A stretch of 64,000 nt of DNA from Octopus vulgaris (lineage: Eukaryota): positions 13,516,001 to 13,580,000 of the forward strand of contig OX597820.1 of the NCBI GenBank assembly GCA_951406725.2. The letters run 5' to 3'. Each line of letters starts with the position of its first letter. The first letter of the stretch is position 1. Shown in pieces: positions 2,437 to 51,399 of this stretch. The position numbers and the translations under genes are program-made. The notes under the pieces were generated by a model. It saw only the letters and a list, made by a program, of their open reading frames with translations, was not told the origin of the DNA and made no database searches.

Positions 2437-2688
2437 TTTGGCTTTGCAAGCCTTTTGTGTAGATTTTTAAATGTGTTCCACACAAAATGTCCCACAATAA
2501 TTCCCCCGCAAGAGGGGAACTAAATACGCAGCCTTCGCGCGAAGGCCACTGACAGTCTTATACAAAAGACACAATATATCAAAGCAACAGTAATTAAATC
2601 AACGAATCGGTATTAACAAAGTAGCAGCAAATGACAAACCAGACAGGCACTCGAATAAGTATTCAGTTGGTGACAATTAAATTGAATT

Positions 2689-4610
2689 ATTTTATTATTA
2701 CCCACAAGGGGCGAACATAGAGGGGACAGTACAATCGGGGAAAAAATAAAATAATGAAATATGAAATATGTATAAATGTGGTGTAATGCCCCACCCGATC
2801 CCCGAAATCAGGTGGTTACATTTCGTCGTTTTTAATTACATTTTATAATGTTTTCAAAAGTAACAAATTCATTTTTCAGCATTTTGCAATACATTTCAAT
2901 ACATTTCAAAATATAATTTCAAAATACACTATCAATTACAGAAAAATTGTTTTCACAAATTCACATATAAAGCTTTCGCAATACATCTTTAAGATTTCAA
3001 AATACATTTGAAATAAACAAAAGTCTTTCCAAATTCTCTCTTTTTTTTTTCTTATAATTTTAATTTAGTTCCATTACCTTTTTCAGGTCATTGTAGTTTT
3101 CCATTTCTCGTGGGTATCTTAGTAGTCGGCACTTCGTGTGTCTTGTTACGTTCATACCAGCGGCCTCGATAAACGCATCGGCGTTGTCTTCATGGACCAG
3201 TGCACCCGTTTCCTTCCACTCCGTGCCCATCCTGACCCATGAATATCCCTCCGTTTCACTTATTAGTTCCTCCATCTCCCCACAGTGTCTGTATTGAACT
3301 AATGTTCCGTAAAATTTGTATCTTCTATTTGACCCTATGTTTTCTTTAGTTTTCCTTTTCGGACTTACTTCTTCTTTACCTTCCTCTCTCGGTTTTTCTC
3401 TTTCTCTCTTTTTGCTTTCCTTTTCTTTTTCCTTCTCTTGTCTTTTTGGTTCTTTGTCTGTCGTATGTTCTTTTCCTGTTTTTTCTTTTTCTTTTTGTGT
3501 AGCAGCTTTTCCTTTCTCTTGATTCTGTTCCTTCTCTTGTTTTTTTCCTGTTTTTTCTCTTTCCTTTATTTTACTTTCTTTTTCTTTCTCTATTGCCTGT
3601 AACTTTTGTTCTTCTTCTATTAATTTCTTCTCTTTGCTTTCATTTTCCTTCCGTGTATTGTTATTTCCTTTTACCGTTGTTTCCCTTTCCTTGCTTTCTT
3701 TCTCCTTTAGAGTATTGTTCCCTTCTTCGGGTTCTTTTTCTTTCTCTTTTTTGTTTTCCTCTGCTTTTTCACACTCCGCCACGTATTCGTAAAGCGGACA
3801 TTCTTTTTTAATGTGACCTCTTGTCCCACATAAATAACAATTGGGTTTCCTCCCCTCAACGATTACGTAGAGGGTTCTACCATCTTCTACTTCTATTTAG
3901 AAGGGAATTCGATCTATATCGCTGTTTGTGGCCATCAGCCACATCTCTACTCCGAATCCCTTCCATTTCACTATGCTAGTCTCCTTTACCGATCCAATTT
4001 CTATATCTTCCTCTGCTGATCCTAGGATGGCTGTTACCAGCCATTCTGTTTTTAAATCTGGGGGTATATTTGGGATTTTAACCCGTACCCCTCTTTTCCC
4101 TTTGTAGGTAGGCCACATGACGAAGTTTTCGGCTCTGAGTACGGTGGTAGCTAGCGAGGCCGCAACTTCTTTTGTTGCGTACCTCACCTCCACCGTACCA
4201 TATTTCTTGCCTCTGCACACAAAGGTAGCCTTTTTCATAACGTCGTCCAGACATTTTTCTATGTCTTCTATTGCTATTCTTGATAGCTTTCTTGTGGTCG
4301 TGTCCTGTGTTCTATAAATTATAGTTTTGTCCTCTTTTTCCTCCTTTGCTTCAGCAGGGGGGACCAGCTTCATTCTGTCACCCTCCCTTTCAATGAATTT
4401 CTCAAATTCCTCTAGCTGTTCTTTTTTAAAGAACACCTCTCTTACTGTCAGCGGCGTATCGCTTTTCATTGCGGCGACCCCCGCGTAAGTCTCCATGACT
4501 TGAGGGTCGGCGCACCTTCTACAAAAAGTTTCCAACGCGCAGCGGCAAATGCCTCGCGCGATTCAAATTTCAATTTCTATATACAAAAATTAACAATTAC
4601 TTAACACAAT
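2689..4610 (-). mobile_element. ORF1-only Tx1-like element 2 with 15-bp TSD
   Basis: Direct repeat CAATTAAATTGAATT at 2674-2688 and 4611-4625; contains only ORF1 plus ~370 bp 3' UTR ending in an A-rich tail. Confidence 0.85.
3060..4496 (-). pseudogene. ORF1 of element 2 (about 479 codons, one in-frame stop at 3897-3899)
   Basis: ORFs 3897..4535 and 3060..3782 share a frame; the gap encodes an intact knuckle CYLCGTRGHIKKEC; RGKKYGTVEVRY matches element 1. Confidence 0.85.
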
Positions 4611-4889
4611 CAATTAAATTGAATTGTTAGCTCTTCTTTTTTCTCTACATTGTATACTTTATAGACATTAGTCTTTTCTTTAATTTGATTTTTTATCATC
4701 CATCTGGACTATTCCATTTCTTCACGCTAATTTTATTTTTAATTTATTCCCATTCATGTGAAACCACTTATTCAAGTTCAAATCATTGATGCAATTTTAT
4801 ACCAAATGCTATTTTTACTTTTGTATGTTACGATTATATTATACTTTAGTTTGATTTTAATTATTACTTACTACATATAATTCAATTGT

Positions 4890-8395: not shown

Positions 8396-8634
8396 TTCCG
8401 TATAAACGGCGAAATATTATCAATTTCCCAAAACAGGGACACAGTTCAATATTTAACAATAACCGAAGCTGCTTCCCCCAAAGGGGGAGGCTCACAGTTC
8501 ACAGTTATATTACAAATTCAATATAACGTTTCCCTTACAGGAAACCAACAAACACAATAGTTAAACAGTAATAACAACAAACCTTACGGTGAATCAAAGC
8601 AGTACTAACTCGAAGCGGTGTCGAAATCGAATAG

Positions 8635-8922: not shown

Positions 8923-9584
8923 TGGGTTCGATCCTTAGGCAGTACCAATAGGAGTTTATGCAACAGTCTCACTAAAGGACGAAAAATTAACTAAAGTATA
9001 GAAGCCATCTTATCATGGCTAACCACATTGGGGAGGGGGTGTTACTGTAGCTTTATAGCCCCAAGAGATCTTCGTCTCTAGCTGGCTTTAGACACAATAT
9101 CTGTGACCTTGGAGTATTTGCAAAGGGAGACCATCCCTTCCTCGCAAGCCTCAGTGATACGCAATTAACTGCAATGGATAAAGTCGTTGACATTCAACAA
9201 CAGAATCCACTACGAAATTGTGTTAGTCTACCGTACATATCGAATAAAGAGGAACACAGAACTGTCTTTGACATAATGGAACCAATATTCTTGGTTATTA
9301 TGGGATTAACGAAAAATGTTAGACAAAATGAAGAGAAGCTTAAATTGTCAGCTGAGAAGCTTAGTGGTGAACTTAGAGGAAGAAAAACGGATTACAAATA
9401 AAAAGAAAAGAGTACGTTAGGTAAATTGAAAAGTAAAGATGTTGAGTGGATTGTCAATCAAGTAGAAATAAAAACAATACCAGTTGTGTAATTACCTAAA
9501 GGTGAAGACTACAGAAGGGAGATAATTACCAATCGTGCTTGTATAAAAAGTGTTTAGAAGAAAACTAGTTATTTTTTTTTTATA

Positions 9585-9972
9585 TTGGTTTCAGTCATTT
9601 GACTGCGGCCATGATGGAGCACTGCCTTTTAGTCGAGCAAATCCACCCCAGAACTTGTTCTTTGTAAGCCGAGTACATATTCTATCGGTCTCTTTTCCAG
9701 AACCGCTAAGTTACGCGGACCGTAAATACACCAGCGTCGGCTGTCAAGCGATGGTAGGTGGGACAAACACACACAAGTATACACGCATACATGCATATAT
9801 ATGTGTGTGTGTGTGTGTGTATATATTTGTATGAGGGGCTTCTTTCAGTTTCCGTCTACCAAATCCACTCACAAGGCTTTGATCAGCCTGCGGCTATAAT
9901 AGAAGACCCTTGCGCAAGGTGCCATTCAGTGGGATTGAACCCGGAAGCATGTGATTGCGGCGCAAGCTTCTT
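9585..9972 (-). mobile_element. CORE-type SINE split by element 4 (its first ~25 nt lie at 12708-12733)
   Basis: Reverse complement of the SINE consensus; the head resumes as ACCACACTCGCGCCT after the second TSD copy. Confidence 0.8.
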
Positions 9973-10149
9973 TATTTCATTAAATTGGCCATATAGGCCT
10001 TACAAAGAGAAGCTTGTGGGCTGGACATGGACAAGATGAGATGAAATGAAACAAAATGATACGGATGAGAGGGATGTCGGCGCCCACCGACCGACATACC
10101 CTCGAATACAAAGTTTCTTACAACAATACAAAGTTTCTTAAAACAATTC

Positions 10150-11364
10150 TCTTTGTCAGGTACCCCAAGCAAAGTGACTTGCCGCCTGCAGACAACTCTG
10201 CATCGACAAGTCGGGGCCTGCAAAGAGGAAAGCAAATTCTTCCTTGTCAAAGGTCGCTGTGACCTTTGACAGAATTCAGGCCATATCGGACTACTTGAGC
10301 AGACCGAGTACACACGTTCTCGGTCACCCAAGCCGTCCAAAAATTTACTCACCGTCCCTCCCTCGTGGTAAAGGAGGACAAACACCTCATCACAGGAAGG
10401 GACCTCACACTGCTCCGTCAGTGGGAAGTGTGCCACTGACGGAGCCCTATCCGCAGGTGGCACACATCCCACCTGCGGCTCCGTCGGCGGCCCAGAAACA
10501 TCCGCCGACCGTCCTCTGTTCCTCTTTCTCCTCTTTATTTTTGAGGCTGCTAGATCAGGGGGCTCCGTCGGCAGACACGGGGGGTCGCCACCCTCCTCCG
10601 CCGCCAGAACATTTTTTGGTGAGCAACCATTGTTGCTCACCTGTCTTCTTTTCGTGGAGGCAACTTCCTCCACGACTTCCACCGTCTCCCCCTCCAATGA
10701 GGGGGGGCGGGCACCTTCTCTTTCTCATGCTCCAGGGCCCCACCACGGCCCCCTGGACAGTTCCTTTTGATATGGCCAGGCTCCAGGCACAGGTGTAACT
10801 TGGGGAGGAGGTCCCTCAAGTATCACCGGGTACCTGTACCCGGCCATTTTTAGGAAATCCGGAAACATCATGTCTCCCTCGGCCACCGGGGTCCACAAAA
10901 TTGCCTTTGACCCCTCCCAGTCGACCGCGGGAGTAATCTTCACACTCAATAGCCTGGGCCCGCTATCCCTCAGGCCTCGCTGAATGGTCTTCTCGATTCA
11001 TCCCGCCTCCGTGCCCGGGGGCAGCCCGCACACCCAGGCTCTTCTTATTTTCCTCCCACAATAAGTGGGTAGGAACAAAATTTCTTCTCCCTCAAATCTG
11101 CCAGTTTCCTCGGGGGTACCAAACAGCAACCACACCGTTGCAAATTTGGTCCCCCCGAGAAATAAATTTTATAGTTGGCAGGTAGTCTGCCAACTCTCTT
11201 TCTATTATGCTCTTGTCGAAGAGGGCGATGGCACCACGCGACCTAGAATAGGTCCGTAGTACCACTGTCCTCCTCTCAAGATCTTTAATCCACTGTTTGG
11301 GTGGGACAACCTCCCACTCCAAGGCAGTGGCTTCATTCTTCTTTGCCATGTGTAAAAAATTCAA
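10150..11364 (-). pseudogene. Frameshifted ORF1 of element 4
   Basis: TVVLRTYSRSRG..IERELADYLPTIKFISRG block homologous to elements 1-3; knuckle (L)HLCLEPGHIKRNC at ~10755-10800. Confidence 0.75.
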
Positions 11365-11843
11365 AGTTCACGATAGATTTAAAAATGAGGAAGATACAAA
11401 AAAAAAGGGAAAGCATAACAGAAGGGAAGAAATCAAAAGAAAGTCACAATAAACAAAAAGGAGAAAGTCAAATAAGTTTAGAAGAAAGTCAATAATTCAG
11501 GAACACGGCAAAAAATCTTCCGGCCATTCGGTACTCCCGGCCTAAGTTGAACCCGGAACGCCGCAACTGGAACACAACTTCCACAATAATTGGTATAAAA
11601 ATTGTTCAATCTTCGGAGGCAAAACACTCCCCCATACAGCAGTTCTCACAATTCTTAAAGTTCTTCAAAAGGCACAATACAAGCAATAATTCTCACAATT
11701 ACGTGAGAACACACACGTCTCCACTGCAAGGCAGACAAAAAAAGCTCCGAATCCAGTAAGGACTCCTTGCTAGTACAAAAAATAAAGCCTACAAGCAACA
11801 AATCCTACTGGACTCCAGAAACAGTAGAGCGTCTTTTAATTCA

Positions 11844-12670
11844 CCAGCTGCACCAGCGTGGTGACTTCAGTTCAATTTTCGCCAGCTGCAAACCAGCGTG
11901 GTGACTTCAGTTCAATTTTCGCCAGCTGCAAACCAGCGTGGTGACTTCAGTTCAATTTTCGCCAGCTGCAAACCAGCGTGGTGACTTCAGTTCAATTTTC
12001 GCCAGCTGCAAACCAGCGTGGTGACTTCAGTTCAATTTTCGCCAGCTGCAAACCAGCGTGGTGACTTCAGTTCAATTTTCGCCAGCTGCAAACCAGCGTG
12101 GTGACTTCAGTTCAATTTTCGCCAGCTGCAAACCAGCGTGGTGACTTCAGTTCAATTTTCGCCAGCTGCAAACCAGCGTGGTGACTTCAGTTCAATTTTC
12201 GCCAGCTGCAAACCAGCGTGGTGACTTCAGTTCAATTTTCGCCAGCTGCAAACCAGCGTGGTGACTTCAGTTCAATTTTCGCCAGCTGCAAACCAGCGTG
12301 GTGACTTCAGTTCAATTTTCGCCAGCTGCAAACCAGCGTGGTGACTTCAGTTCAATTTTCGCCAGCTGCAAACCAGCGTGGTGACTTCAGTTCAATTTTC
12401 GCCAGCTGCAAACCAGCGTGGTGACTTCAGTTCAATTTTCGCCAGCTGCAAACCAGCGTGGTGACTTCAGTTCAATTTTCGCCAGCTGCAAACCAGCGTG
12501 GTGACTTCAGTTCAATTTTCGCCAGCTGCAAACCAGCGTGGTGACTTCAGTTCAATTTTCGCCAGCTGCAAACCAGCGTGGTGACTTCAGTTCAATTTTC
12601 GCCAGCTGCAAACCAGCGTGGTGACTTCAGTTCAATTTTCGCCAGCTGCAAACCAGCATGGCGACTTCAA
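11844..12670. repeat. 40-bp minisatellite, about 21 copies
   Basis: Unit GCCAGCTGCAAACCAGCGTGGTGACTTCAGTTCAATTTTC; 19 identical copies over 11881-12640 plus variant end copies; no spacers. Confidence 0.97.
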
Positions 12671-12744
12671 CAGGCGAGTGAAGAACAACTAACGACCGGA
12701 ACCGGAAGCAAGCTTCTTACCACACTCGCGCCTAGTTATTATTT

Positions 12745-48360: not shown

Positions 48361-51332
48361 AACTTAGAATAACTTAGAAAGGTTTTTGGCCAGTATTGGC
48401 CCAGGCCATGTCTAACTTAATAGCACCACCTGGCGAAGTCTTTCAGTTCAGGATTTGGGCACCAAGGCCCATTCGAGCAGAGAGTTATTGTTTGCGGAGA
48501 CATATCCGGGTGTGGGTGGTTTGTCCGGTACTGTTTGAAGGAATTTGTCCAAAGACTTCTTGAATTTTGTGTGGTCAGTTTCTTTTTTGACGTGTCCTGG
48601 TGTAATGTTGAAGAGAGCAGGTCCAATTGAGGTGAAATAGTTGTGCCGTATTGTCGTTATGTGATGCGATTTAGATTTTTGTTGTGGACGGATGGCACGT
48701 GGTCCAAGCCTTGGATGCATTTTGAAGGTGATGCCAACATCATTCGGACAGTGCTGATGGAATATTTTCCACATCATACAGATAATGTAGCGTTCACGGC
48801 GTCGTTGGAGTGAATACAATTTCAGCTTCTCTAGTCTACCCCAGTAGTCAAGGTCTGACATGCCATCTATCTTTTTTGTGATTGACCTTTGGGGAGCTTC
48901 AATTCTCATAATATTTTGTTTTGTGTAGGGAGACCACAGTGGACAGCAGTATTCAAGGTGGGGTCGGGCAAAAGTGGAGAAGAGAAGGATAATAGCGTGG
49001 GAATCTCTCGACTGGAAGGTTCTGAGAATCCAGGAACACATTCTGCGGGCCATGTCAACTTTGCTGCTTATATGTGTAGCCCAGCTTATGTTGTTGTCCA
49101 CTGTTACTCCCAGGTCTCTGATGTTGTTGGATGCCATGAGAATTTCTCCAGAAGGAAGAGAGTATGGGAGTTTCAGAGCGTCCTCCCTTCCAAAGTGGAT
49201 CAGTTCGAATTTGTCTTCATTTAGCAACATGTTATTCTTTTCCGCCCATTGGACAACAGCCAGTAGGTCTGACTGAAGGTTTATTCGGTCATCCACGCCA
49301 TTGATGACCTTCTGGAGCTTGGAATCATCAGCGAAGGTTCTGATGTTGCTGTGTTTGATGGTGTCAGTAATATCATTTATGTAGATGATGAAGAGAAGTG
49401 GGCCCAACACAGTGCCTTGTGGGACACCACTGCTGACTTTGGCTGGGCTGGATTTGACTCCTTCGACTACAACATGTTGGGTTCTGTTAGACAGGAAGCA
49501 CTTGATCCACTGCAGCAGCTTTCCAGTGACACCAATATTGGACAGCTTTCTCAGAAGGATCTTATGATCAACCCTGTCAAAGGCCTTGCTGAAATCAAGG
49601 TAGATGACATCAGTGTTGGAACCTTCTCCCAAGGCTCTCAAAATGTCATCAAAATGATGCAGTAGCTGCGTCAGGCAATCTCTCCCATTACGGAATCCAT
49701 GCTGGTTGGGGTTCAGCATATTATGACTCTCAAGGAAGTGAGTCATACGCGATCTCAACACCCTCTCAAATACCTTGATGATATGAGAGGTGAGTGAGAT
49801 TCGACGGTAATTCACGGCAAGCGATTTGTTTCCTTTTTGAAAACTGGGACAACAGACTGGGATAGAAGGTCTTCTGGTATATATCCAGCATCCAGTGAGT
49901 TCCGCCACAGATTGGCTAGAGGGGGTGCAAGTTGGTTTTGACACATCTTCAAGACACAAGCAGAGAACCTATCGGGACCTACTGCTGAATTATGCTTCAT
50001 TTCCTTTATTGCTGCTAAGACATCAGGGGCACCAAATGTTATGTCCGATAAAGTGTATTGGGGAGTAACATCACTGATACAGCCCAGATCAGTCATATCA
50101 GGATTGCTGAAAACAGAGCAATATTGTTTCTGCAATATCTCTCCCATGGTTTGGCATTGTCTTGAAGAGTACCATTTTCATCAATCAGAGGGCCAACAGT
50201 AGAACCAGTGACTCTGTGTTTTTTTGCAAATGAAAAGAACACTTTGGGATTGAGTTTGATCTTCTCAATGGCCTAGGCCTCTTCAGCTCTTCTTAGACAT
50301 CATGTTGTTTTGGAGTTTATGTTTTTTAATCTCTAGCGACGAGATGGCAGTCAGGTTGGTGTGTTGCTGTTGACAGTATTTCAGCATGTTGATCTTTTTG
50401 TTAATTCTTTTAATTTTCCTTATGAGAGATTTTCTATTTCTAGGGATTCGACACTTAGATTTGTTTGCAGATCTTAATGGGGTGTGTCTTACACATATGT
50501 TCGTGATGGTGTCTACAAGTGACTGCCAGGACTTTTTGATGTTAGTGGGTGTGTATGTGTGCGTGAAGGACCAATCGACTTGTGCAAGATCATTATTGAT
50601 CGCTTCCCAGTTTGCATTGTGGAAATCCATAGTGTCAAATGGATGAACAGGAGGGATGACATTTGTTTTGCATTTTGGCCAGTGAAATCTCAGATCACAG
50701 AGAACCATGTCATGGTCGGAGAGTAGGGTTTTCTCCACTGCAATATTGTGGATAGTATCAGTGTGATTGCTGAAAATTAAGTCTAAGACGTTTTTGTGAC
50801 ATCTCGATGGTTCGAGTACCAGTTGGGACAGGAAGAAATCATCCATGAAGTCAAGAAGCGATTCCACTGCCTCCCTGTCAGGGGTTGAGAGAGAAGAACC
50901 TGGCGGCAGACTGTTTGTAGACCAGTCAACCCCGGGAAGGTTGAAGTCTCCCATCATTAAAATGTTGTCAGGTTGACACTGCTGAATGAAACACTTTATG
51001 CTGTTGAGGCATTCCTTGAAGCATGGTAGGGGCGTTTGGGGTGGTCTGTAGAACCCAACTACTGTTAAGTTGTTGGTTTGACTGAATACAGCGACTGCTT
51101 CGCAGTATCCATTGGAAAATATGTTCATGGCTTCTGTTGAGAATGAATCATGGACATAAATGGCAGTCCCACCCTTTCTTCTGCCAGCACGATCAGCACG
51201 AATGGTTTTGAAATTTTTAACTTTCACCTCGGCTTCCAAGTGGAGGTCACTAAGATGGGTTTCAGTGAGGACGAAGAAAGGGATGTGGTTTGGATGGGCC
51301 TCGACCCAGTCCTCCAGGAATCTTATCTTCCA
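48361..51332 (-). mobile_element. CR1-group LINE, nearly complete ORF2 plus 3' UTR, between TA tracts
   Basis: APE and RT domains; 3' end with a duplicated TTCTAAGTT; 5' end cut just inside APE. Confidence 0.9.
48448..51332 (-). pseudogene. ORF2 (APE + reverse transcriptase) with about 3 frameshifts
   Basis: TETH, GGTAIYV, YRPP, GDFN, LDL, SDH; NYRRISLTS, QHGFR, YLDFSKAFD, GVPQGTVLGPLLF, FADD, LEYCCPLWSP. Confidence 0.92.
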
Positions 51333-51399
51333 TTTTTTGTATATTTATATATATAAAAGTATATACATTTTTTTATATTTATATATATTTATATTTTTA

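Follow-up and report, generated by a model that had tools for sequence, protein, structure and literature searches.

The window, a stretch of 64,000 nucleotides of Octopus vulgaris DNA (contig OX597820.1, positions 13,516,001 to 13,580,000), carries at 9973-12703, on the minus strand, a decayed non-LTR retroposon of the ORF1-only kind that interrupts a tRNA-headed SINE. In window coordinates, the parts of the element and of its host are as follows.

9580..9957, minus strand: 3′ part of the host tRNA-headed SINE (B box at about 9931-9942, body, microsatellite, tail), by match to a SINE consensus built from fetched loci
9958..9972, minus strand: 3′-side copy of the 15-bp target duplication, three of its last four letters unlike those of the 5′-side copy
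9973..10155, minus strand: 3′ UTR, 183 bp, with an AATAA end and no poly(A); its last 36 nt are 84-89% identical to the tails of autonomous LINEs at the same site
9987..9999, minus strand: short 3′ stem-loop common to all families at the SINE site
10008..10016, minus strand: tail motif of 9 nt, complementary to the target; across families, the base in its middle varies with the target
10156..11349, minus strand: ORF1, broken in this copy (start 11349, stop codon 10156-10158)
about 10160-10430, minus strand: clade-specific C-terminal domain of ORF1
10412..10445, no strand: 13-bp inverted repeat inside ORF1, with an 8-nt loop at 10425-10432
about 10755-10800, minus strand: CCHC knuckle within ORF1
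11350..12703, minus strand: 5′ UTR, belonging to one of the several 5′ types that are interchangeable within the family
11840..12669, minus strand: 40-bp unit, 20.8 copies, 99% identical
12704..12718, minus strand: 5′-side copy of the 15-bp duplication, with no difference from the target in the old-SINE consensus
12719..12733, minus strand: 5′ part of the host SINE head (A box region)

The original prediction placed a repeat at both ends of the element, and GCAAGCTTCTT indeed occurs at 9962-9972 and again at 12708-12718, with no third occurrence on either strand of the window. The duplication itself is real, but its length had been set at 11 bp; it is 15 bp long (12704-12718 and 9958-9972), with 12 of 15 letters alike. 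As also predicted, excision of 9973-12718 rebuilds a continuous tRNA-like SINE head from A box to B box. At 9958-9968, the three altered letters of the 3′ copy create a short, nearly perfect palindrome of the kind that a template switch would leave. The predicted contents, a 5′ UTR with 40-bp repeats, an ORF1 and a 3′ UTR (183 bp), are all present, but the ORF1 is broken, with several frameshifts and an in-frame stop at 4.1% divergence from the family consensus, and the repeat array is private to the window copy, where 19 of 19 exact genome-wide matches fall. A tandem-repeat 5′ UTR was therefore rejected as a family trait. No endonuclease or reverse transcriptase (RT) was found in the interior of the insert. 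The 8-nt hairpin loop at 10425-10432 is inverted relative to all 18 other copies scored, a micro-inversion. Among contigs from sequencing runs over 9150-11800, none spans the junction of the element.

The host repeat has the high copy number, the A/B box head and the short length of a tRNA-derived SINE. ARAGORN called no tRNA gene in the window, and an Rfam search of the SINE flank returned microsatellite noise only. CORE-SINEs have a CORE domain of about 60 bp behind the tRNA head. An octopus repeat, OR1, is listed as a CORE-SINE in the part of PMC4824008 covered here.

Searching the 2.8-Gb genome with the 3′ part of the element gave 465 first-look candidates, 40 of which were scored, and a 35-letter pattern from the 3′ UTR has 35 exact matches. 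Both junctions are visible in 22 of the 40 fetched loci, and the duplication is 15 bp in all 22. The 16 copies longer than 1.5 kb that were aligned with the window copy (1.5-2.3 kb) hold ORF1 and a short 3′ UTR only, without APE or RT, and their 5′ UTRs are of several unrelated types. Multiple copies, duplications of their own and 5′ truncations are all seen, as expected of amplification as an ORF1-only element. A single-copy element, or ORF2 in the family, had been named as evidence against the original prediction; the element proved to be multicopy and its family to lack ORF2. In the unrelated 5′ UTR types of loci L034-L068, a splice-donor-like GGTAAG or GGTAGG lies some 60-120 nt behind the start, and NRF1-like or ETS-like words open many of the 5′ ends. 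In 7 of 51 5′-end clusters, a DPE-like motif begins at position 29, counted from the first letter of the duplication; the 5′ type of the window copy has no such motif.

To what extent the SINE position is a preferred site can be judged from the 38 loci that were picked by element sequence alone and scored for their target (2 of 40 were unscored, and L032 and L033 resemble duplicates). Thirty-one end at the same SINE position, 26 running into the SINE and 5 into the 5′ end of another element that stands behind the same target letters, while 7 are without an ending at this site. The 26 share the same base and the same orientation. Assuming 1e6 SINE copies, the chance of hitting the site is at most about 2e-4 per insertion. 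Because 31 of 38 relatives found by element sequence end there, the position is a target and not a chance location; the proportion also lies above the criterion of one repeat class in more than 20% of flanks (PMC4494074). The 15-bp duplication sits between the A box and the B box. Across the genome, exact junctions number 329 for the old type and 502 for those with SINE continuation over all variants, with none for reversed controls; exact empty SINE heads number 58,747, so that about 0.85% of such heads are filled. That this SINE position is a specific, repeatedly used target, common to ORF1-only elements and autonomous LINEs, is the main point of this analysis and was absent from the original prediction.

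The host SINE has three main subfamilies that differ within the target and are 13.9%, 6.7% and 1.1% diverged (6, 18 and 19 copies, respectively). Old families, including that of the window, sit in the old SINE variant, and all 31 cases of young families that were found without recourse to the target pattern lie in one of the two younger variants. The old type accounts for 16 of the first 100 listed empty sites, which differs from the 31 of 31 younger sites of the young families at p of about 0.01. An “escape” of the SINE from targeting was considered and rejected, as all three subfamilies are occupied roughly in proportion (first 100 listed empty sites and first 100 listed filled sites). A minor variant, with the young first change and the old ending, makes up 9 of the first 100 listed empty sites and none of the 100 filled ones.

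We surveyed the occupants of the site at the first loci of the match lists, 39 with an old-type junction and 40 with a younger one. Many ORF1-only families (1.3-2.3 kb) occur there, as do two-ORF elements with internal deletions (L073, L096 and L087), a second SINE and truncated copies. The 406-bp insert in L071 is a different SINE-like element with a LINE-type tail, at the same target and with its own duplication. Searching with the RT DNA of one occupant led to full-length LINEs of 5.4-5.7 kb at the identical position, and in at least 3 of the 20 loci found in this way ORF2 is unbroken over more than 1,100 residues. The autonomous ORF2 has 1,133 aa, and that of L125 matches PF03372 (APE), PF00078 (RT) and PF13966 (zf-RVT) in Pfam above cut-off. 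The ORF1 of L125 has a knuckle, and its two ORFs, APE, RT and C-terminal zinc finger together form a Tx1-type architecture. The 120 listed RT relatives of the partner LINE carry no clade names; the label “Tx1” is used here on the ground of architecture.

Autonomous and ORF1-only elements at the site have a common 3′ end. The last 36 nt of the window element best match the tails of L111, L072 and L112, an older autonomous lineage (86-89%). The likeness to partners is confined to these 36 nt, and the ORF1 is only 27-29% identical to theirs. Among 90 tails bearing the core of the 3′ stem-loop, the closing pair is T-A or G-C in 83, and Watson-Crick closing pairs make up 94% versus 57% expected; 31 of 121 tails are without the core.

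Elements also stack head to tail, forming arrays of 7, 8 and 9 units within a single SINE, one of which carries an autonomous element at its 3′ end. In L201-L207 and L210, 7-9 ORF1-only units that are nearly identical are lined up within a single SINE. One ORF1 frameshift is common to many array units across contigs, and the subfamily has spread to several contigs; because the units share this frameshift, multimer copying or trans-complementation is possible.

Having established the site, we placed the window element among its relatives by ORF1. The large tree of ORF1 cores rests on a quick search (73 of 96 extracted cores, near-copies omitted), and a careful tree was built from 24 of those. 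In these trees the window element falls into a long-stemmed, fully supported clade (100/100), together with an Octopus sinensis protein that is the sole database relative found for an intact ORF1 (61% identical). Its subfamilies are 40-100% identical, old and young, and young members retain an intact ORF1 of about 415-420 aa. Among 117 distinct clade copies with enough flank, none has ORF2 and 112 end at the target junction; this set takes in array units and loci picked by junction pattern, so it measures the absence of ORF2 and not targeting. An autonomous element with a clade-type ORF1 could have been missed, because only 150 of 11,990 first-look candidates were scored. The idea of an old, diversified ORF1-only lineage is borne out by the 100/100 support for the clade.

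Purifying selection has acted on this ORF1. Of 10 comparisons with L146 between subfamilies, 9 give a dN/dS of 0.11-0.26 in the RRM-knuckle core and one gives 0.35, similar to the 0.13 of an autonomous pair. Within subfamilies the ratio is mostly about 0.5, as decay after insertion would give, and in the C-terminal domain it is near 1 in close comparisons. Since a frameshifted subfamily has spread and the C-terminal dN/dS is near 1, ORF1 may not always be needed in cis.

A single-sequence structural model of ORF1 was uninformative (pLDDT 42), whereas one from a 41-row alignment reached pLDDT 70. It comprises two predicted RRM folds, a CCHC knuckle, a disordered, basic, low-complexity linker and a confidently predicted C-terminal domain. 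The RRM folds match tandem-RRM proteins in Foldseek (E about 1e-4) and the La RRM by VIA (Z 8.4, rmsd 2.8 over 83 residues). For the C-terminal domain we obtained no Pfam match and no usable Atlas match. In the fold searches the RRMs filled the lists, so that these say little about the fold of this domain. An iterated profile of this domain matched clade members only, on which ground we rejected it as a remnant of ORF2 or a homologue of the C-termini of element 2 or of the partners.

Two further elements lie near the left end of the window. Element 2 (2674-4625), an insert of roughly 1.9 kb with ORF1 only, is bounded by 15-bp repeats that do not resemble the SINE target and lies immediately upstream of the two-ORF element 1 (1-2673, continuing into L110). 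Its 15-bp duplication is common to element 1, after which the same letters stand, and exact junctions of this type number 3 genome-wide; elements 1 and 2 form a second stacking site. A dense same-strand cluster of Tx1-like elements, several of them with ORF2, reaches from some 20 kb to the left of the window up to window position 8400 (G000 C7; L211, L110) and includes one more ORF1-only clade member. At 48448-51344, the window holds a nearly intact LINE ORF2 of another, CR1-like type, in two parts with the endonuclease and RT frames.

The ORF1 of the window element is, as predicted, distant from that of element 2 (35% identical over 174 residues), and element 2 is outside the clade and at another target. 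Two other ORF1-only groups also fall outside the clade, both at the SINE site. With these three outsiders, several origins of the ORF1-only state are favoured, in line with the prediction that it arose more than once. Three changes are needed on the best tree, and none of 200 bootstrap trees has a single change, although the AU test does not formally reject one origin (p = 0.072).

The tails of the elements track their target. An exact tail motif is present at 109 of 191 junctions and is complementary to its own target variant in 108 of the 109; 82 of 191 lack the exact motif. It lies 66-81 nt from the end in autonomous tails and 43-48 nt in ORF1-only tails. Of 60 tail clusters, 20 are informative, and all 20, autonomous and ORF1-only alike, agree with their own target, a covariation that is confounded with age and kinship. 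We considered an RNA hairpin between the tail motif and read-through target and rejected it, as folding of the window tail with read-through leaves the motif unpaired; since folding does not favor an intramolecular hairpin, only RNA-DNA pairing would remain as a candidate.

The 5′ side shows partly family-specific features. An extra T is found in 20 of 111 5′-side junctions versus 0 of 191 3′-side or empty sites, one family has an identical 5′ variant at 11 loci irrespective of the 3′ copy, and autonomous family B has the young variant on the 5′ side in 3 of 3 middle-type SINEs. Contrary to an element-borne copy, the full-length L052 has a private change on both sides, and its 5′ copy therefore derives from the target. 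Because the tail motif tracks the target and the 5′ duplication copy is partly family-specific, we infer that both ends of the element RNA likely pair with the target. On the simplest reading, the template RNA would often begin in the target and the cDNA would anneal to upstream target, as proposed for R2, where upstream 28S sequence on the 5′ end of the RNA would anneal to the target and give uniform, heritable 5′ junctions (PMC3774820, in the part covered here). R2, for its part, has a restriction-like endonuclease, a single ORF and a ribozyme. An element-borne canonical 5′ copy beside an already mutated target would explain the contiguous match of 11 of 15 letters in the window; later mutation of the 3′ copy accounts for it equally well.

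Given these features, the window element is very probably a decayed copy of an ORF1-only family fixed at one position of the SINE head and copied by the endonuclease and RT of a full-length LINE at the same site. Trans-mobilization by a partner that shares the 3′ end is likely, and at the time this partner was probably the older lineage represented by L111, L112 and L072, while younger autonomous families would serve younger ORF1-only subfamilies. The ORF2 protein of the partner would bind the common 36-nt tail with its stem-loop, nick the SINE between the A and B boxes and then prime reverse transcription, with the tail motif pairing with the target. The element may retain ORF1 in order to package its own RNA. 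An RNA that starts inside the duplicated target would allow the cDNA end to anneal to upstream target in an R2-like 5′ joining, and the regenerated site could receive the next insertion, giving rise to arrays.

Three alternatives have to be weighed against this explanation. ORF1-only copies might be repeated, recent deletions of an unsampled autonomous LINE with the same ORF1 type, the selection having been earned in that ancestor. Internally deleted two-ORF elements do occur at the site (L073, L096, L087), the genome search scored the best candidates only, and the ORF1-only structure seems to have arisen several times in this genome. We nevertheless regard this origin as improbable: ORF2 is found in 0 of 117 clade copies even though the subfamilies span 40-100% identity, old and young, and the whole clade has one tail type and one C-terminal domain, undetected in the autonomous ORF1 and ORF2 sequences examined. 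That no longer fused protein was found points weakly the same way. Slightly less credible still is targeting in which tethering to factors of RNA polymerase III at active SINEs plays the main part, the endonuclease has only a loose preference, and the tail and 5′ matches are by-products. Tethering to transcribed copies predicts the 31 of 31 young-family insertions in the two younger SINE subfamilies; set against this are single-base precision and a constant 15-bp stagger, re-insertion at the 5′ junction after the B box had been displaced by kilobases in arrays of 7-9 units, and the covariation of tail and target.

That one ancient insertion was amplified along with the SINE, by hitch-hiking or segmental duplication and without targeting, has a very low probability. 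A few loci are segmental duplicates (the C14 group, L032/L033 and the C7/C2 group). In two young families, however, the elements differ by 0.3% and 1.5% and their SINE flanks by 8%, and 5′-truncated copies of 38-240 bp (L078, L043, L037) interrupt the SINE with their own duplication. Because flanks diverge far more than elements and copies as short as 38 bp insert independently, hitch-hiking is refuted. It is also contradicted by the range of occupants at one site, which comprises dozens of unrelated families as well as truncated copies and another SINE, and by the occupation of three SINE subfamilies of unlike age. Returning to copying by a same-site LINE, a more far-reaching version can be put forward tentatively, at somewhat less than even likelihood: a LINE lineage and its long-lived ORF1-only passengers would have specialized on a single base in the polymerase III promoter of the SINE, with their own RNA as a partial guide. 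The tail motif and the target copy at the 5′ end of the RNA would pair with the insertion site and would have been rewritten in both lineages at each change of the SINE target letters.

The system resembles several known ones in part. HAL1 (half-L1) of mammals is a non-autonomous LINE derivative that encodes ORF1p only and had several independent origins, and the part of PMC5753468 covered here does not describe this L1-derived element as site-specific. The window clade is likewise an ORF1-only LINE derivative, but differs in its RRM-RRM-CCHC ORF1, the absence of poly(A), its fixed target and its young intact members. L1 ORF1p has a coiled coil-RRM-CTD organization and is not known to carry a knuckle. 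With predicted tandem RRMs and a CCHC knuckle, the octopus ORF1 does not have the mammalian L1 ORF1 origin that defines HAL1 proper. Tx1 elements are known to insert into transposons: in the part of PMC4494074 considered, Tx1L occurs in Tx1D, Tx1-Mar with SINEU in Mariner-N4_AMi, Tx1-9_AMi in Harbinger, and Tx1-8_Crp and Tx1-4_AMi in LTR elements. There too, an APE-type LINE and its passengers prefer another transposon as their site; in the octopus, by contrast, the target is the polymerase III head of a SINE, the passengers code for ORF1, and mixed-family arrays form at one base. Drosophila HeT-A, an ORF1-only element that needs the two-ORF partners TART/TAHRE and forms head-to-tail arrays at telomeres (PMC4700185, in part), resembles the octopus system of ORF1-only elements and two-ORF LINEs in head-to-tail arrays at a dedicated site. 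Telomere ends make the endonuclease unneeded and serve the host, whereas the octopus site is an interspersed selfish repeat with a 15-bp stagger.

Active L1-Tx1 families are listed in the part of the octopus repeat annotation PMC13282606 covered here, in whose main text the words “target”, “nested” and “non-autonomous” do not occur. We found no report of a SINE-targeting LINE or an octopus ORF1-only Tx1 in the literature, with Repbase Reports, subscription journals and the supplement of PMC13282606 outside the scope of that search. For annotation, our findings advise caution, as octopus ORF1-like “genes” and short “TSDs” are open to misreading.

In this genome, the usual relation in which a SINE parasitizes a LINE is reversed: the SINE offers LINEs and half-LINEs a safe place to land that is renewed with each insertion, and they split its promoter. 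The three dated target variants provide a natural series for studying how the specificity of an APE endonuclease changes and whether targeting is aided by RNA-DNA pairing, and this series also bears on site-specific retrotransposon tools. Furthermore, with an ORF1 under selection and no ORF2, this clade opens the old question of the cis role of ORF1p to direct testing.
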